26,675 bases of DNA from an uncultured Gemmatimonadota bacterium (lineage in GTDB: Bacteria; Gemmatimonadota; Gemmatimonadetes; Gemmatimonadales; GWC2-71-9). This document shows positions 6,455 through 14,000 of the stretch, piece after piece. Positions within the stretch are counted from its first letter, which is position 1. Every line of letters starts with the position of its first letter. The DNA is taken from assembly GCA_937899135.1 (NCBI GenBank), contig CALBPS010000429.1:1-26675 (forward strand), given 5' to 3'. The translations under genes were made by a program, and so were the position numbers. The notes below the pieces were generated by a model. It was given only the letters and a program-made list of their open reading frames with translations. It was not told the DNA's origin and ran no database searches.

Positions 6455-6625
6455 ATGGGCTCCTGGAGAACGGTCGGGCGCCAGTTGATCACTTAGTAAT
6501 GAACCTTACCGCGTGACCGCCCACCGTGGATGTGTTCCAGCGCACATTTCCGGGTTTTCGGTCGATTCCCTCCCCTGGCGGTTTGCCGGCGTCCATATTG
6601 CTGGTGTCCCCAACGACGAGTTCTC

Positions 6626-7294
6626 ATGGAACGGATTCCTGAACCCGAACTAATGGCCGAAGATGATCAGGCGCAGGCATACGCCTTGGCGGATTTTGAA
6701 GAGGCGCACCGCCGCATGCTCGAGGTGTTCCATGATTGTTTCCCGTCGCTGCCCGACACCGGCCATGCGGTGGATCTCGGGTGTGGGCCCGGGGATATAG
6801 CGTGCCGCTTTGCTGCTCGCTATCCTGGCTGGCGCGTTGACGGGGTGGATGCCTCTCCGGCGATGCTGGGATATGGGCCCGTTGTCATGGATCGCTACCC
6901 CGGGGTAGCAACGCGGGTCACGTTGGTTGAGGGCCTGCTGCCCCATTGCCCCGTTCCGCGTGAGCGATATGACGTGGTCCTGAGTAACAGCCTCCTCCAC
7001 CACTTGGCCGATCCCCAAGTTCTGTGGATCGCGGTCCGGCGTCTGGTGAGTTCCGGCGCTCCGGTACTGATCATGGACCTCGTCCGCCCGGCGGCCGACG
7101 ACGACGTTGATGGCTTGGTGGAGGAGTATGCGTCGGGAGAGCCGGAGGTACTGCGCCGCGACTTCGCCAATTCGCTGCGCGCCGCCTACCGGGTCGATGA
7201 AGTAGCATCGCAGTTGGTGGAGGCGCGGCTGCCGTGGTTGGCGGTGGCAATGGTGACGGACCGTCACATGATCGTGTCCGGCGTCGCTCCCTGA
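6626..7294 (+). CDS. Class I SAM-dependent methyltransferase
   Basis: Motif I VDLGCGPG, motif II GVDASPAML and YDVVLSNSLLHH. The N-terminus MERIPEPELM is typical of this family, so the start is placed at ATG 6626. Confidence 0.9.
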   Translation: MERIPEPELMAEDDQAQAYALADFEEAHRRMLEVFHDCFPSLPDTGHAVDLGCGPGDIACRFAARYPGWRVDGVDASPAMLGYGPVVMDRYPGVATRVTLVEGLLPHCPVPRERYDVVLSNSLLHHLADPQVLWIAVRRLVSSGAPVLIMDLVRPAADDDVDGLVEEYASGEPEVLRRDFANSLRAAYRVDEVASQLVEARLPWLAVAMVTDRHMIVSGVAP

Positions 7295-7303
7295 AAGCGG
7301 AGG

Positions 7304-7915
7304 CTATGCCTCTCCGGCACGGCGGACGCGCCGATTGAGCCGCAAGAACTCGAAGAATCGCGGCATCAGGAACCGGCGAGGCGGGGGGCCGGGGTCGGCC
7401 GATTGGAGAACCGCTAGCAGGTCCTGCGGGCTCACTTGGCGTGTCATCGTGTCCAACGAGCGAGCCAGCACAGTTCGCCCACGGCCAACCGTCACCATGG
7501 CGGGGATGGGGATCCCTCCGTGTTCGTGCTCGTTCAGCAGGTCCCAGGTGCGGATGACGCTGCGATCGGTATCGCACAACAGATCGAAGGGGAGATAAAG
7601 CTCGGCCTGCAGCAATGCCGCCGTCCGAGGAGGGTCGACCGATACAGCCGCCAGGTCGAAACCGGCGGCACCGATGGCGTCGAAGTGATCACGAAAGTCC
7701 GCCAACTGGCGAACGCAGAACGGTCACCAATGGCCTCGGTAGAACAGAAGAATGGCAGGTCGGGTGTCCACCTGCTCGTCGAGGTGCCACGGTTGCTGAC
7801 TGGCGTTCGAGAGTTGGAAGTCGGGGGCCACGGCCCCCACTCGTGGGATATTGGGTCGCCCGGGCGGTTGGTCATCGTCCATCGTCGGATCGTTGCTCCG
7901 CGGGTCGTCAATCAT
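7304..7915 (-). CDS. AhpC/TSA peroxiredoxin-like (redoxin) probable selenoprotein with UxxC motif
   Basis: The track ORFs 7724..7942 and 7304..7705 are in the same frame and separated by a single TGA (7724-7726): APDFQL...AILLFYRGHW-TGA-PFCVRQLADF...AVSVD...PFDLLCD. The TGA occupies the first Cys position of the WCPFC motif and is followed by a SECIS-like hairpin. ATG 7915 overlaps the upstream stop (ATGA). Confidence 0.85.
7697..7726 (-). promoter_or_regulatory. Bacterial SECIS element downstream of the in-frame UGA
   Basis: UGA-CCGUUCUGC-GUUCGCC-AGUU-GGCGGAC forms a 7-bp stem (one G-U). The 4-nt apical loop starts 16 nt after the UGA and has G at its second position, fitting the general bacterial SECIS consensus. 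Confidence 0.7.
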
Positions 7916-8835
7916 GCTTCGGGCTCGAGGAATTCGATCCACATCCCGCGCGCCAGCCCGGGCGGCACGAGAAACGATCGTCCTCTCCCGGAAACCGTGG
8001 TGAAGGGGAATCGTCGCCCCACGCCAGTGGCGACCACCTGGCGCGCTCGCACGATACTCTCGACGATTATTGTCACGCCCATGATGCTCTCGCCCTGTTG
8101 TTCGAGATACGAGGCGGTGATGCCTTTGAGGTCGGTGGGGCTCACGAGAACCAGGGTCCCTTGCGCCATGGGGAATGCACGACCCAGTCCGTTGAGCGGT
8201 TGCATGGCGACGACATCCCCGGCTGTCCAGCCCAGGGCCTCCAGTCGTCGGGTCGTTGCAGCAATGTCCCGGACCACCAGCCAGGCCGCGGTCAGGCCGA
8301 CAGCGGTGTTGGCGTGAACCACCGCGGTGCCGGAGTCAGCGGGATGGTCCAGGTACTGAATGAAGAACACCCGACGAAGCGGTTCCGGTTCCATGAGGGC
8401 CACGGTTCGGAACCCACTGGGGCTGGGCCCCGTGTCGCTGAAGCCGGCGTCACGACTGGTCAGGTGGTCCACTACCGCCGTCATCGAGTCCGTAGCAAAC
8501 GCCAGAAAAGCTCCACCCTCCCGGTGTTCGAGAACCTCCAGGTACCACTTTGACACGCTGTCCCGGGCCTCTGTGGCGGTGATCAACTCCAGGAGCGTGC
8601 CATCCTGCAGCTTCAGGAACACGTTGCGGATGGAATTCTGGTGGAGCCGGCCGGGAGTAGCGGTGAAGCCCAGGGCAGTGTAGCTGGTGGTGGCGGCACC
8701 GAGATCGCGGACGGCGATAGGGACGTGATCTAGCCTGGCCGCGGTGACGGGCGTGCCTTGGGCCATTAGCACCGACACCGGAATCGCCAGCTGGACGAGC
8801 ATGCTCCACGTGTGCCTAGCGAGCCAGACGGACAT
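7912..8835 (-). CDS. VOC / glyoxalase-like (Glyoxalase_3-type) protein with two VOC domains and a possible signal peptide
   Basis: RLDHVPIAVRDL...ALGF...G...RNVFLKLQDGTLLELI and a second repeat GLTAAWLVVRDI...ALGW. The start is uncertain (8835 or 8802). Confidence 0.8.
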   Translation of the reverse strand: MSVWLARHTWSMLVQLAIPVSVLMAQGTPVTAARLDHVPIAVRDLGAATTSYTALGFTATPGRLHQNSIRNVFLKLQDGTLLELITATEARDSVSKWYLEVLEHREGGAFLAFATDSMTAVVDHLTSRDAGFSDTGPSPSGFRTVALMEPEPLRRVFFIQYLDHPADSGTAVVHANTAVGLTAAWLVVRDIAATTRRLEALGWTAGDVVAMQPLNGLGRAFPMAQGTLVLVSPTDLKGITASYLEQQGESIMGVTIIVESIVRARQVVATGVGRRFPFTTVSGRGRSFLVPPGLARGMWIEFLEPEA

Positions 8836-9295
8836 TGGTGAACGCGGGCTCATCGGTGACTTCCCGGGTGACGTGTGGCGCCAGCCATTGCGGAATGGTG
8901 GGGTGTCGCTCGTCCGGCAGTTCGATCTCGCCCAGCACGAGGGGTTGGTCCAGAAACTCGTCGATCTCCCAGATGAAATCTCCATCCGGGACCAGGTAGC
9001 GGCGCTTACGAATGCGCCGTCCATTGGTCAGGGGCCACAGCGCATCGAAGAATCGTTCGGTCATCGGCTCTTCGATTTCGATGCGCGAGACTCCTCTGCC
9101 GAGTTTGATGGTGCGGACGAAACGGGTCTTGCCGGCCTGGCGCACCCGGCGGATTCGTTCGATGATCTTGGTGCCCGGGAGATACCCCTGCACGATCTCG
9201 ACGGACGGTGCGGCCGCCGCGGTGTCGGGGAGGCCCTCGAGCAAGTACTTGCGTTCGATCTCTCGGTCGAGGGGCGGATCGGTGGTGGAGGCCAT
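8816..9295 (-). CDS. CYTH-domain (triphosphate tunnel metalloenzyme) protein
   Basis: EIERKYL (ExExK), QGYL, RIRR, TIK, RIEIE, IRKRRY, WEIDEF, EIEL, EVTD and the C-terminal FTN. Start at MASTTD (9295). Confidence 0.9.
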   Translation of the reverse strand: MASTTDPPLDREIERKYLLEGLPDTAAAAPSVEIVQGYLPGTKIIERIRRVRQAGKTRFVRTIKLGRGVSRIEIEEPMTERFFDALWPLTNGRRIRKRRYLVPDGDFIWEIDEFLDQPLVLGEIELPDERHPTIPQWLAPHVTREVTDEPAFTNVRLAR

Positions 9296-9312
9296 CGACG
9301 TGAGTGTACCGG

Positions 9313-10485
9313 TTACGCTGCTACCACGACTGGGTTGGCGAATCGCACTCGCTGGATGGCTTGCTGCCGCATCAACTGGATGAACGGCAAGGCAAACTGA
9401 GGATCGAAATCGTCGCCGGTGTTTTCTTCGATCAACGCCAACGCCTTCTCCGACGGCCAGGCGTCGCGATATGGGCGGTTGGTGCACAGCGCGTCGTACA
9501 CATCGCACACGTGAACCAGGCGGCTGGCGATGTGAGTTGGGCGCGCGTAGTGCATGGAAGGGTAACCGCCGCCGTTCAGCATGATGTGATGTTCGTAAGC
9601 CACGATGGCGGGCACTTCCAGCCGGACGTCCCGGCCCAGGATGATCCTGGCGCCTTCGTCGGGGTGTCGCTGCATGACGCGACGCTCTTCGTCGGTAAAC
9701 GCTCCGGGCTTGACGAGAATCTCCTTGGGGATCCTTACTTTCCCCAGATCGTGCAACAACCCGGCCACACCCATCACTCGTACGTCCCGCCCCTGAAGGC
9801 CGATGTACTCGGCGACGGCCATGGCCAGGACCGCCACGTTGGTGGAGTGTGTCGTGGTGTACTGATCGAATTCCTTCAGTTGGAGGAGCGGAAGGAGGAT
9901 CTCCTCCTGGCTGTGCATGGCGGTGGACAACGACCGCACCACCATCTCCGCTTCGAGCATGGGGATGTCGCCCTGGTCCTGCACTTGCCGGTGCATCCAC
10001 TCGATGGTGTCGATGTCGTCTTGCAGCGTGTAGGCGATCGTGGCGCTGGTCCCCAGTAGTTCGTCGGTCTCCTCCGCCTCCTCGATGCCGACCAAGATTG
10101 GCCCGTAGCGGATTCCGGTGCGCCGCATGTACCTGGCCTCGGTGGTGTCCAGCGATTCACCCTTGAACCGGAGGTAGGCGTCACGGAGAAATTCCTCGTA
10201 GTCGTCCCGTGTCACGCTCTCGTCGATCTCGACACGCTCGACACCGACCTCGGCCAGTCGAGGTCCCCATTCCCACTCCTTGAGATCCCGGAGCACCTCC
10301 CGGTGGAACACCACTTCGCGGTCCACGAAGGTGAATTGCCGCTCCCCTGCCCCATCCACCAGGTCGCGCAGCTTCTCGTACGATTCGTCGACGGCCCGCT
10401 CGCGTGCCGGATGGCCTTTGTCGTATAGGGACATGACGGCCAACACGTGCCCCATGGACATCAGAAACCGAACAGGATCGCTCAT
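9313..10485 (-). CDS. HD-GYP domain phosphodiesterase (putative cyclic dinucleotide PDE) with an uncharacterised N-terminal domain
   Basis: YTTTHSTNV, GLLHDLGK, MQRHP, EHHIMLNGGGYP, VCDVYDAL and RPY. The start overlaps the upstream stop (ATGA). Confidence 0.92.
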   Translation of the reverse strand: MSDPVRFLMSMGHVLAVMSLYDKGHPARERAVDESYEKLRDLVDGAGERQFTFVDREVVFHREVLRDLKEWEWGPRLAEVGVERVEIDESVTRDDYEEFLRDAYLRFKGESLDTTEARYMRRTGIRYGPILVGIEEAEETDELLGTSATIAYTLQDDIDTIEWMHRQVQDQGDIPMLEAEMVVRSLSTAMHSQEEILLPLLQLKEFDQYTTTHSTNVAVLAMAVAEYIGLQGRDVRVMGVAGLLHDLGKVRIPKEILVKPGAFTDEERRVMQRHPDEGARIILGRDVRLEVPAIVAYEHHIMLNGGGYPSMHYARPTHIASRLVHVCDVYDALCTNRPYRDAWPSEKALALIEENTGDDFDPQFALPFIQLMRQQAIQRVRFANPVVVAA

Positions 10486-12536
10486 GCGCTGGTGACCATG
10501 GCGCGGATCTCCTCATGCGTGCTGTTTCGAGCCGAATCGAGCACCAACTGAACCTCCGGCGAATCGGCCCAGGTCGTTGACAAGGCGCCCAGGGCCGCCA
10601 GCATTTCGGGCGAGACAGCAGCCAGGCGGCGTCGGCGCTGCCACCACTTGCGTTTGGCCAGGGCTTTGTCAAGCAGCGCCCTGCGGGGCCGGGAGGTGGT
10701 GAGACATCCGAGCACCCGGATGGCCAGCACGCGGATGTCGCCGTCATCGTCGTCCAACAGTTCCAGCGCTCGACGCTCCGCCTTGGGAGGGCAGGCCACC
10801 GTGGCGGCGGTCAGGGCCATGCGGATGATCGAGGTGTCGTCGTCGGTCAGCCCGATCAATATGCCGCTCTCTCGCACCTCTGTCCCCTGAGCCTGGAGCA
10901 TCAACTTGACGGCTTCGCGCCGTACTCGCGCGTCGTCGGCGCGGGCATGCATTTCCGGCGAGAAGCCCTCGGGCCACTCCGGCAGCGATCCCAACAGGAT
11001 GAGGAGGTTTCGCTTGACGTACCATTCGGCTTGGGACAATCGTGCCGCGGCCAGTGGACCGACCCCCGAGCCCATGGCTGTCAGGGTGCTCAGCAGGCGG
11101 TGGCGCATGGCCCGAGACTGCGCCGTCGCAAGGGCGTCCAGCAGCGGCTCGGCGGCGTCGGCGCCGAGCCGCTCGAGTACCCGCTGGACCCCTTCGACGT
11201 TGTGTTCGTCGTGGGCCAGCAAATATGTCACCTGTTCTGGCGACGAAAGGTACGCCCAGGTGTCTGCCGGAGTAGAAGACGCCTCCGGGGCGGCATCGAG
11301 AATGTCCAGCAACTCCTGAAACCGGCCCGTCTGCAACATGTTGTCTACCGCGTTGGCCACCGTGGCGCCAAACACGCTGACCTCCATGGCCATCTGGATG
11401 ATCCGGGGGGCCTCGCTGGTTGTTTCACTGGTTGCGCTCGTGGTCTCCTCGGTTCCGACGGCCGCGAGCCGCTCGAGGACCGCGGTGTATGCCTCCGGAT
11501 TGGGATCCTCCAGGGTCCAGTCGTCGAGCAGGGACTGGACCGATTCCCTGAAGCTGTCGTCGGCCTGTGGTTTGAGGGCGGTGTTGCTATCCCTCTCGGC
11601 GTGATCCGCCAGCTTGGACAACAGGCGGAGGAACGAATGGGAGATCGTCTGCTGGCCCGTATCCGCCGCGGCCTTGACCAGATCCATCACCGCGCTGACC
11701 GGCAACGTCGCCGATAGATCGGAGAGCAGCTGATTCCGGTCGGCAAGGCCTCCGCCAACCTCGAGGAGCCGCTTGAGGGTAGCCTGGTCGAGCGACTGCA
11801 GGAGGCCGGCGACCTGTTCTTGCATGGCCTTGGCCTCGGCTCCCTCACGGAGTTTGAGTTCCCGTCCCAATTGTGTGAGGTACCCGACGATGACCTGGTC
11901 GTATGTCCGGTCTCCCTTGCGGTCCTTGATCGCCTCAGCGACTCGATCCGGGTCTCCGCCGGTCGCGTCGTCGGTCCCGCCCACGGTATCCTTGCGTAGC
12001 GCCGCCGCCGCCAGTCCCAGCCATAGTTGTGACTGACCAGCCAGCCCTTCACGTTTCGCGTCATCGCCCGCCAGGACCAGCTCATCGAACGTGAGGGGGA
12101 TCACTTTGATGTGCTGCCAGCGGTCGAGCTCCTCGCTTGGCCGCAGTCCGAATGGCACGTCTTCCCGGTTGGCCTCCGGGCACAATGTGGCGAGAAGATC
12201 CGCCAACTCACTCAAGGTGACGCCCGCCTGGAACCGGATGGCAGCCACCTGGTGGCGATGCAACCGCTCGGCCAGTTCCGACAGTACGGCGCTATGCGGA
12301 TCGGTCGCCACGCCCTCCACGATCAGCTGATTCCGGGCCACCCCCATCGCCAGCATATCACGTTCCGACAGCAGGGCCAGGAGTTGCGTGTAGACCGATT
12401 CGGTGGCCTCATTGACGACCGGGTGGTTGGTGGGATACGTGGCGGCCTTGTGGAGGCCGACTGAGAGCTGCACCAGGAACACAGAGATTTCCCGGGACAG
12501 CGTCTGGGCCTTTGGGGAGGCCTCAGGTTCATTCAC
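10482..12536 (-). CDS. HEAT/armadillo-repeat protein
   Basis: C-terminal HEAT-like repeats (WYVKRNLLILLG; DARVRREAVKLM; DDDTSIIRMAL; DDDDGDIRVLAIRVLG). GTG start with a GAGG RBS. The N-terminal domain resembles that of the HD-GYP neighbour. Confidence 0.8.
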   Translation of the reverse strand: MNEPEASPKAQTLSREISVFLVQLSVGLHKAATYPTNHPVVNEATESVYTQLLALLSERDMLAMGVARNQLIVEGVATDPHSAVLSELAERLHRHQVAAIRFQAGVTLSELADLLATLCPEANREDVPFGLRPSEELDRWQHIKVIPLTFDELVLAGDDAKREGLAGQSQLWLGLAAAALRKDTVGGTDDATGGDPDRVAEAIKDRKGDRTYDQVIVGYLTQLGRELKLREGAEAKAMQEQVAGLLQSLDQATLKRLLEVGGGLADRNQLLSDLSATLPVSAVMDLVKAAADTGQQTISHSFLRLLSKLADHAERDSNTALKPQADDSFRESVQSLLDDWTLEDPNPEAYTAVLERLAAVGTEETTSATSETTSEAPRIIQMAMEVSVFGATVANAVDNMLQTGRFQELLDILDAAPEASSTPADTWAYLSSPEQVTYLLAHDEHNVEGVQRVLERLGADAAEPLLDALATAQSRAMRHRLLSTLTAMGSGVGPLAAARLSQAEWYVKRNLLILLGSLPEWPEGFSPEMHARADDARVRREAVKLMLQAQGTEVRESGILIGLTDDDTSIIRMALTAATVACPPKAERRALELLDDDDGDIRVLAIRVLGCLTTSRPRRALLDKALAKRKWWQRRRRLAAVSPEMLAALGALSTTWADSPEVQLVLDSARNSTHEEIRAMVTSA

Positions 12537-12707
12537 GGCCTCAGGTCCATTAACGATCGGTTGTGGGCGGAAGAGGGTTCACGCCGGCAGTTGTCTACCA
12601 CAGGCTGCCACCGGCGACTGTCCCACTCGACAATACTGGACCGCGACCCATTCTACTAAAGTACGTACCCGACCGGTGGGCTGAAACCCCAAGCATGCAG
12701 TGGGCTC

Positions 12708-14000
12708 CTACTCGATGCCGGTCTCGATAGCGTCGAGCATGGCCTCGGCGAACTGGTCCACCTCGTCCACGGTGGTGTACACGTTCGGCGTCACTCGCAG
12801 ACCTTGGAATTCGGGGTGGAGGATCGGCACGGTGACGATGCCGTAGTTTCGGCGGAGCCAGCCCGGGAGGGCCTTGGTGTCCAGCCCGTCGACACTCACC
12901 AACCCGATGGCTCCTCCGTACTCCGAGTCGAGTGGCGTGAGAACGGTAACCCGGTCGCTCTCCTCCAGGAGGAGCTTTGCCCATCGGTCTCGCAGGTACC
13001 GCAAGCGCGCGACCTTGCGCTCGGCGCCGATGCCCTGGTGGAACGCCAATGCCGCTGAGATGGCATTGTGGTTGGCCGCCGGGTGTGTCCCGATCTCCTC
13101 GTACTTGCGGATGTTGTCGTCCATCGATTCAGGTGCGGCCATGAGGGGCCACAGGCCGCGCTGCTTGTCCTTGCGAACGTAGAGGAAGCCGGTACCGATC
13201 GGCGCCAGCAGCCATTTGTGCAGACTGGTGCCGTAGTAATCGCAATCGAGCTCGTCACGGGTGAACGGAAAATGGGCGAACGCGTGGGCGCCGTCGACGA
13301 ACACCTCGATGCCTCGGGGCCGGGCTAATTCGACGATCTCCCGCACCGGCAGGATCTGGCCTGACAAGTTGGTAATATGGGTGACCTCGATGACCTTGGT
13401 CCGTGGCGTGATCGCCTCGGCGTACCGCTCGACGATGTGCTCCTGTGATGGCGGGGGCACGGTGAACGAGATTTCCTTCACCACGATGCCGTCCCGGCGG
13501 GCGCGTTGCTGCCACCCGGTGATCATCCGGGGATAGTTCTGGGTCGTGACCAGCACTTCGTCGCCCGGCTCTAGGTCGAGGCCGAAGATCATGATCTCCA
13601 GGGCCTCCGACGCGTTGCGGGTGATCGCCATCTCTTCGGGGTCGCAGCCAAACTCCTCAGCCAGCTCCCGCCGCACGAACTCGACCCTGGGCTCCAGTAC
13701 GCACCACATATACTCCACCGGGTGTACGTCGGTGAATTGGAGGTCGCGGACCATCGCTTCCAGAACGTGGGTAGGCGTGGGGCACACCCCGCCGTTGTTC
13801 AGGTTGATCAGCGTGCGATCGGGAGCGAAGGCGCGCTGGAGGTGGCTCCAGTATTCCTCGTCGTCCGCTACCGCCCCAGCAGATCGCACCCCTGCCTGCT
13901 CGGTGGCGCGGAGGACCCGCCTGATGGCGTCGGAGCGAAAGGGTGGCAGGGCGAGAGTGGCACCGGCAACGGAAGTGACGAACGATCGGCGGTTCAGCAT
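12708..14000 (-). CDS. Tat-exported class V PLP-dependent aminotransferase (isopenicillin-N-epimerase / cysteine desulfurase-like)
   Basis: Twin-arginine signal NRRSFV. Class V motifs LNNGGVCP, RNASEAL, THITNLSG, VDGAHAF and the PLP lysine in TSLHKWL. AGGAG RBS. Confidence 0.92.
   Translation of the reverse strand: MLNRRSFVTSVAGATLALPPFRSDAIRRVLRATEQAGVRSAGAVADDEEYWSHLQRAFAPDRTLINLNNGGVCPTPTHVLEAMVRDLQFTDVHPVEYMWCVLEPRVEFVRRELAEEFGCDPEEMAITRNASEALEIMIFGLDLEPGDEVLVTTQNYPRMITGWQQRARRDGIVVKEISFTVPPPSQEHIVERYAEAITPRTKVIEVTHITNLSGQILPVREIVELARPRGIEVFVDGAHAFAHFPFTRDELDCDYYGTSLHKWLLAPIGTGFLYVRKDKQRGLWPLMAAPESMDDNIRKYEEIGTHPAANHNAISAALAFHQGIGAERKVARLRYLRDRWAKLLLEESDRVTVLTPLDSEYGGAIGLVSVDGLDTKALPGWLRRNYGIVTVPILHPEFQGLRVTPNVYTTVDEVDQFAEAMLDAIETGIE

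Follow-up and report, generated by a model that had tools for sequence, protein, structure and literature searches.

The closest known systems to the genes described here are families of HD-GYP proteins in which an accessory domain accompanies a C-terminal catalytic domain, namely the Bd1817 family (DUF3391-HD-GYP, PDB entry 3tm8), PmGH (GAF-HD-GYP, 4mcw), and PA4781 (REC-HD-GYP, binuclear, 4r8z). In a census of HD-GYP domains, the residue E185 of PmGH defines a trinuclear class that is able to take pGpG to guanosine monophosphate (GMP), and enzymes with other residues at this position, for example Tyr, are unable to perform this conversion (bioRxiv 10.1101/2021.11.05.467447). The same work suggests that DUF3391 promotes dimerization of HD-GYPs. 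Here, we analyze a 26,675-nucleotide (nt) stretch of DNA from an uncultured Gemmatimonadota bacterium (contig CALBPS010000429.1 of assembly GCA_937899135.1, hereafter the window), in which five consecutive co-oriented open reading frames (ORFs) occupy the minus strand from position 7304 to position 12536. In order of reading, they encode a HEAT-like protein, which we refer to as the partner, an HD-GYP protein, a CYTH protein, a VOC-fold protein, and a peroxiredoxin (Prx)-like selenoprotein. The functional core of this array is the two-gene unit formed by the partner and HD-GYP genes, whose conservation holds throughout the order and becomes patchier at the level of the class. The HD-GYP protein has the H..HD..H..HH..D ligands and the GYP and KPG motifs in common with the Bd1817, PmGH, and PA4781 types and lacks E185, like the binuclear class, but its N-terminal domain (N-domain) is none of DUF3391, GAF, or REC. 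Unlike in these types, the N-domain is repeated on a separate, obligately adjacent solenoid protein, and HHI stands in place of HHE.

The conservation of the pair was established in two independent samples. The order-level sample comprises the ~17 kb surrounding each match to the partner in a search of 40 relatives of the same order, while the second sample consists of the best 80 loci from species genomes, retrieved via an alignment of the HD-GYP protein and labeled mostly as Gemmatimonadota, with five Acidobacteriota. All 40 order-level loci, counting the second and third paralogous copies, have the HD-GYP gene immediately next to the partner gene on one strand, and in the second sample the partner lies upstream of HD-GYP in all 67 loci with room to judge. 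The two genes are thus adjacent in 107/107 loci, and their aligned ends are 32 nt apart in the median and at most 226 nt apart. All-against-all clustering of the ORFs showed that no other families are common to all order-level loci. A search of 151 genomes of the phylum recovered the partner in 92 (64/71 in f1, 19/31 in f2, and 0/13 in f10; the unpublished genome G083 enters this tally as a count only), with a concentration in the order of the window and no occurrence in several other families. Beyond the phylum, the Atlas offers candidate look-alikes in Thermodesulfobacteriota, Acidobacteriota, and Myxococcota. The pair has also been duplicated and evolves as a unit. Six paralog-B loci group as a single clade in the trees of both proteins (support 99 for the partner and 95 for HD-GYP), and the branching inside this clade is identical in the two trees. 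The pairwise identities of the two proteins are correlated (r = 0.86), a value to which shared ancestry contributes. These paralog-B pairs are found at L055, L056, and L058–L061. The source genome itself bears a second partner/HD-GYP pair on another contig (C578, L069:189-2810), where it is cut by the contig end; the encoded proteins are 33% and 42% identical to those of the window.

The other three genes show a very different distribution. Among the 80 loci of the second sample, neither CYTH nor VOC was found near the pair (0/80 each), and Prx was found once, 2.4 kb away. The three genes are likewise unlinked to the pair in 35 order-level loci, with the exception of one genome (G022), in which opposite-strand genes intervene. 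This genome belongs to another genus of the same family and has a CYTH homolog 4.3 kb upstream of the pair, outside the operon, and a Cys-containing Prx 2.1 kb downstream of HD-GYP, past two opposite-strand ABC-transporter genes. Only in the genus of the window do the CYTH, VOC, and Prx genes follow the pair, and they do so in varying sets. Two genus-mates (G001 and G003) have the order pair-CYTH-Prx without VOC, and these are the only genus-mates with CYTH at this position; a third (G004) has the order pair-VOC-Prx without CYTH, and in a fourth (G005) the contig is too short on the 3' side of the pair for its gene content to be judged. Each of the three genus-mates with a sufficiently long contig therefore has Prx 3' of the pair, even though their partner proteins are only 59–70% identical. 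A contig from the public run X6 joins position 7930 directly to position 8793, such that 7931–8792 are missing, and represents a natural VOC-less form with the same CYTH-Prx layout as in G001 and G003. On this basis, the presence or absence of the VOC gene would seem to be an indel polymorphism in this genus. All three downstream genes are lineage-specific passengers, and the compact array of five is a feature of the genus and not a conserved five-component system. In the window, the genus-specific 3' extension after the pair comprises all three of these genes.

Both proteins of the pair are headed by a domain of ~135 residues, which spans residues ~17–154 of the partner (12075–12488, minus strand) and residues ~4–136 of the HD-GYP protein (10078–10476, minus strand). 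Comparison of the two N-domains with hhalign, using profiles built from ~40 orthologs each, gave a probability of 97% and an E-value of 8e-11 over 128 columns, which identifies them at the profile level as homologous. When 77 N-domains are aligned jointly, a single Tyr and a single His prove invariant, corresponding to Y34 and H38 in the YPxxHP motif of the partner and to Y21 and H25 in the LYxxGHP motif of the HD-GYP protein, and F7, L8, P26, L77, and L100 are nearly so. The order of secondary structure elements is α-α-β-β-α-β-α-β in the AlphaFold2 (AF2) models of both proteins, with the Tyr/His motif in the loop that connects helix 1 to helix 2. The domain is uncatalogued, in that it has no match in Pfam or NCBIfam and no sequence match in the PDB. 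We considered whether it could be DUF3391 and rejected this identification: PF11871 does not match any of 31 members at E ≤ 1 and was not found in the genome, and the published DUF3391 structure has four strands followed by two helices, which is a different order of elements. A search of the ESM Atlas returned scores of only ~0.76, one of them to DUF3391, and the Foldseek and VIA matches obtained with whole models are dominated by the HD domain or the solenoid and not by the N-domain. Searched against 1.84 billion proteins, the N-domain profile matches 3485 cluster representatives, of which 866 reach E ≤ 1e-10. The 150 strongest matches are ~400 residues long, ~700 residues long, or fragments, and there are thus essentially two architectures. 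The metagenomic protein P0129, which has no Pfam match, carries the N-domain in an internal position.

The partner gene (10482–12536, minus strand) starts with GTG and encodes 684 residues, and its orthologs align from residue 1. On the single sequence, HEAT_2 scores 19.8 bits, which is below the Pfam cut-off of 27.7, but the family profile (A2) finds alphaRep/HEAT chains at E-values from 3e-19 to 1e-9 and places a HEAT-like repeat region at residues ~426–635 (10632–11261, minus strand). The AF2 model of the partner has a predicted local distance difference test (pLDDT) score of 85; residues 168–683 are entirely helical and form an α-solenoid, which Foldseek matches to PP2A-A, CAND1, and ARM solenoids. 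No NCBIfam family matches. Family profile and model agree in describing the partner, a non-enzymatic protein, as an α-solenoid of the HEAT-repeat type. It resembles the PP2A A subunit (PR65), other HEAT/ARM scaffolds, and the designed alphaRep proteins in its paired-helix α-solenoid fold, and it has in common with the PP2A A subunit the idea of a non-catalytic scaffold placed beside a phosphoesterase. The likeness is one of fold only, with template modeling (TM) scores of 0.25–0.30 and 13–15% identity. Unlike all of these proteins, the partner carries an extra α/β N-domain, and a role as a scaffold would be a presumed one here.

The HD-GYP gene (9313–10485, minus strand) encodes a putative phosphodiesterase of 390 residues (AF2 model pLDDT 81), with the catalytic domain at residues ~207–374 (9364–9867, minus strand). 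HD_5 (PF13487) is matched with 88 bits against a cut-off of 27 (E = 7e-25). In sequence, the catalytic domain matches PmGH (4mcw, E = 2e-37), V-cGAP3, and PA4781, and in structure (VIA) it matches Bd1817, DvhD, PmGH, and PA4781 with Z-scores of 18–20. Residues H213, H245, D246, H274, H299, H300, G305, G307, Y308, and P309 are invariant in 31 family members, D328 is conserved in at least 90% of them, and all eight positions that align with metal-binding or catalytic residues of PmGH other than E185 are kept. The GYP and KPG motifs are intact in the clade of the window. The signature HHExh(D/N)GxGYP reads HHIMLNGGGYP, with HH, N, and G-x-GYP retained and, in the whole family, a hydrophobic residue in place of the Glu. 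The position of PmGH E185 is taken by the invariant Tyr209, which means that the acidic residue of the trinuclear (PmGH-type) subclass is missing. Because of this substitution, we predict that the enzyme is of the binuclear class and converts cyclic dimeric GMP (c-di-GMP) to pGpG and no further. The window contains no GGDEF gene, as an initial annotation of its sequence had pointed out, yet the genome carries at least eight GGDEF loci, which makes c-di-GMP a plausible substrate. The genome also has at least seven HD_5 loci, two of them of the partner-linked kind. The HD-GYP proteins of the paralog-B pairs have HDIGM instead of HDLGK, lack KPG, and read HH(A/G/M)RPDG; they may differ in substrate or be non-catalytic. 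Separately, we discarded a defense-system reading, for which there were only weak Cas3-HD and OloA matches arising from generic HD/HEAT similarity.

Taken together, we favor a model, with a probability of roughly 70%, in which a conserved solenoid/HD-GYP core with shared N-domains is accompanied by genus-specific passengers. According to this model, the 684-residue solenoid and the HD-GYP protein, both headed by the same N-domain, would be translationally coupled, and pairing of the two N-domains would join partner and enzyme in a pseudo-homodimer. Alternatively, both N-domains could read one common signal. The solenoid would then scaffold or gate a binuclear-class HD-GYP that hydrolyzes c-di-GMP to pGpG. 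We infer the pairing of the N-domains by analogy with the dimer-promoting N-terminal domains of other HD-GYPs. Several points weigh against this model. Physical contact between the two N-domains is itself deduced, and the catalytic competence of the enzyme is uncertain because the Glu of HHE is replaced family-wide, by Ile in the window protein. That the five genes, or indeed just the two of the pair, share a transcript is read from their spacing. The persistence of the Prx linkage among genus members with partners only 59–70% identical makes some lineage-specific functional coupling conceivable, and the signal peptide that we assign to the VOC protein below was judged by eye. Finally, an apparent Rosetta-stone fusion (P0258) turned out to consist of a partner C-terminus, junk, and an HD-GYP N-terminus in a frameshifted assembly and was dismissed.

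It is possible, albeit unlikely, that the N-domain is instead a sensor of a small molecule or metal that acts independently in each protein, in which case the two would not associate but would simply be regulated together as outputs of a single signal. The invariance of a Tyr and a His in the helix1–helix2 loop of both families would indeed be more typical of a ligand site than of a dimer interface. However, strict adjacency, tight coupling, and co-duplication usually mark the components of a complex, and the partner has no recognizable output domain.

Somewhat more doubtful is the proposal that the HD-GYP protein is a non-hydrolytic receptor for cyclic dinucleotides, or a regulator, that acts via protein contacts (cf. 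HnoD and Xanthomonas RpfG), with the solenoid as its effector. We retain this alternative because the Glu of HHE is hydrophobic in the family, and across it this residue is changed to Ile, Val, Ala, Gly, or Met. Moreover, the census lists HD-GYPs with altered motifs that act through interactions only (bioRxiv 10.1101/2021.11.05.467447), and the paralog-B clade has HDIGM for HDxGK and is devoid of KPG. On the other hand, the inactive examples of the census have lost HD or HH, both of which are retained in the window protein, as are the eight PmGH-aligned positions apart from E185, with GYP and KPG intact in its clade.

The five genes of the window are tightly packed. At the partner/HD-GYP junction, which reads gcATGAgc, the start codon of HD-GYP (ATG, 10485–10483) overlaps the stop codon of the partner (TGA, 10484–10482). 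The HD-GYP stop codon (TAA, 9315–9313) is followed by a gap of 17 nt and then by the CYTH start codon at 9295. The CYTH/VOC junction is ambiguous, because an ATG at 8835 gives a 20-nt overlap and an N-terminus resembling a signal peptide, whereas an ATG at 8802 gives a 13-nt gap. A second ATGA overlap is formed by VOC (TGA, 7914–7912) and Prx (ATG, 7915–7913). Contigs from other public marine metagenome runs cover positions 6900–9121, 7845–9603, and 9207–12800 and jointly bridge all junctions, which rules out an assembly artifact. This layout is in agreement with the initial annotation, which had described five minus-strand genes with two ATGA overlaps, a 17-nt gap, and a near-abutting or overlapping CYTH/VOC junction in the same interval. 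Profile, structure, and motif evidence likewise bears out the gene identities it had assigned (HEAT-like, HD-GYP, CYTH, VOC, and selenocysteine (Sec)-containing Prx), including the HEAT label, for which the family profile (E = 3e-19) and the α-solenoid model make up for the sub-threshold score of the single sequence.

Given the overlaps and short gaps, the five genes are probably co-transcribed here. The likely promoter region of the unit would be the 171-nt spacer 5' of the partner gene (12537–12707, minus strand), in which there is no match resembling a sigma-70 site. A consensus scan of the stretch, which is uninformative for this phylum, gave no promoter-like site and a single weak terminator-like site, inside the partner gene, which is fewer than in shuffled sequences. 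Downstream of the array, a convergent methyltransferase gene (6530–7294, plus strand) stops 9 nt from the Prx stop codon, with no terminator-like hairpin in between. Upstream, the pair is preceded by a class V aminotransferase gene (in the interval 12708–14000), a recurrent neighbor of the pair in relatives. It runs in the same direction as the pair in the genus of the window, whereas at least nine other loci (L037, L039, L088, L089, L111, L115, L122, L123, and L147) have it in divergent orientation, separated from the pair by ~0.9 kb. Neither this pair nor the paralog-B pair of G022 is flanked by trpB or trpA. In about 12 loci (L043, L044, L046, L048–L050, and L063–L067), genes of ~545 and ~104 residues are found 5' of the pair on the same strand. 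They are probably groES-groEL, because the C-terminus of Cpn60 (GroEL) runs into a partner N-domain in the metagenomic protein P0182.

The CYTH gene (8816–9295, minus strand) encodes a CYTH/TTM protein of 159 residues. It scores 18.0 bits against Pfam, below the cut-off of 23.2, but residues 11–155 match NE1496 of Nitrosomonas europaea (NeuTTM; 2fbl/3typ) with an E-value of 1.5e-15 and with the Lys, Arg, and Glu rows aligned. NE1496 chains are the only matches in the PDB at E ≤ 1, with no cyclase chain among them. The two proteins are alike in their full-length match, their size (153 residues in NeuTTM), the tunnel residues, and the ExExK motif, which reads EIERK at residues 12–16. They differ in the sub-cut-off Pfam score of the window protein and in the fact that the homolog of one relative follows, and is perhaps fused to, CHAD. 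NE1496 is an inorganic triphosphatase specific for inorganic triphosphate (PPPi), and bacterial CYTH proteins have often been mislabeled as adenylate cyclases (PMC3440374). The initial annotation had left open whether the gene encodes a class IV adenylate cyclase or a triphosphatase; the CYTH fold holds, and with NE1496 as the nearest protein we predict inorganic triphosphatase activity of the NeuTTM type and not that of a class IV cyclase. Consequently, the gene gives no evidence of second-messenger synthesis. The relative in question is G022, in which the CYTH homolog makes up the C-terminal end of a 505-residue open frame with CHAD in its first half (L036:1537-3054), representing either a fusion or two abutting genes. 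A role of CYTH in connection with phosphate polymers would fit, since CHAD lies directly upstream in the same open frame.

The VOC-fold protein (7912–8835, minus strand; ~307 residues, with the start at 8835 or 8802) matches Glyoxalase_3 (PF13468) with 64.6 bits against a cut-off of 25.1 (E = 2e-17). Its N-terminus reads MSVWLARHTWSMLVQLAIPVSVLMA/QG and that of the G004 ortholog ends in ...SSVAGA/QD, where the slash marks the putative cleavage site. In both, a basic beginning is accompanied by a hydrophobic segment and an A-x-A/Q site, which we read as a probable signal peptide; the protein would then function outside the cytoplasm. One natural variant has an in-frame insertion of 9 nt at the VOC N-terminus.

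The last gene (7304–7915, minus strand) encodes a protein of 203 residues with an AhpC/TSA fold (E = 2e-22 for AhpC-TSA, above the Pfam cut-off) and a UxxC motif. Its sole in-frame TGA (7724–7726, minus strand) lies in the context FYRGHW-U-PFC and would be read as Sec. This codon is kept in 4/4 genus members, and the homolog in G022 has TGT (Cys) instead. A hairpin resembling a Sec insertion sequence (SECIS), with a 7-bp stem and an AGUU loop, begins 10 nt after the UGA (7697–7714, minus strand). Although its folding z-score of −1.4 is not significant alone, relatives preserve the stem despite pair-conserving substitutions (U-G to C-G, G-C to G-U), and the Cys homolog lacks it. SelA and SelD score over the cut-off in the source genome, in which selB, its wing domain, and tRNA-Sec were not found in an assembly that is 71% complete; selB and tRNA-Sec are over the cut-off in G001, G003, and G004. 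These features substantiate the Sec-peroxiredoxin call of the initial annotation. The selenoprotein family "Prx-like 1" has been described in marine microbes as a pfam00578 family with a UxxC motif, with 225 Sec forms and 2740 Cys forms in Global Ocean Sampling (GOS) data (Zhang and Gladyshev 2008, PMC2398784). With its AhpC/TSA fold, UxxC, a Cys form in relatives, and a marine setting, the window protein shows no substantial difference from this family, and we assign it to Prx-like 1 on its motif and fold. In terms of motif, Sec replaces the Thr of the peroxiredoxin TxxC, and a thiol-disulfide oxidoreductase is therefore as likely as a peroxidase. The C-terminal tail (7304–7390) is basic and amphipathic (PRFFEFLRLNRRVRR); it is kept in genus-mates and weaker in the Cys homolog of G022.

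The initial annotation had proposed, as a possibility, that the five genes combine a nucleotide second-messenger module with co-expressed detoxification enzymes. One part of that idea stands, in that the HEAT-like/HD-GYP pair is a conserved nucleotide-signaling unit. As for the whole, a dedicated system in which nucleotide turnover by HD-GYP and CYTH is coupled to detoxification by VOC and Prx is very improbable: tight packing with two ATGA overlaps, the constant position of Prx 3' of the pair in the three judgeable genus-mates despite the divergence of their partners, and a conceivable role of a redox enzyme beside HD-GYP centers, which need ferrous iron and are inactivated by oxidation (bioRxiv 10.1101/2021.11.05.467447), are set against the lack of CYTH, VOC, and Prx from the neighborhood of the pair in more than 100 loci outside the genus, the varying content inside it with a natural VOC-less variant, a CYTH protein nearest to a PPPi-specific triphosphatase (PMC3440374) and with a CHAD neighbor in G022 that suggests a polyphosphate context, and a VOC protein that looks exported. 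Such a system is unsupported because the three genes are variable within the genus and unlinked to the pair outside it, the latter being an outcome that the initial annotation itself had named as refuting its proposal. A narrower idea, to which we give equally little credence, is that the Sec-containing Prx, and variably the triphosphatase, has been recruited into the transcript of the pair, where Prx would keep the di-ferrous center of HD-GYP reduced or redox-gated. If this were true, c-di-GMP turnover would respond to peroxide or thiol stress via the solenoid partner, the HD-GYP protein, and the Sec-containing Prx.

A five-component system for messenger turnover and detoxification is therefore nonexistent as a conserved entity. 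The CYTH, VOC, and Prx proteins are ordinary members of known families, although the window does add a clear Sec/Cys pair and a conserved SECIS-like hairpin to the known marine selenoprotein family, and the interest of the locus lies in the two-gene unit. Two proteins, found together throughout the clade and headed by the same uncatalogued N-domain, make up this HD-GYP unit. The pair is not in the published census of HD-GYP domains, which makes no mention of Gemmatimonadota (bioRxiv 10.1101/2021.11.05.467447). If the partner does control the enzyme through paired N-domains, the unit would represent an undescribed mode of regulating c-di-GMP hydrolysis in a phylum that is abundant in soil and marine environments.

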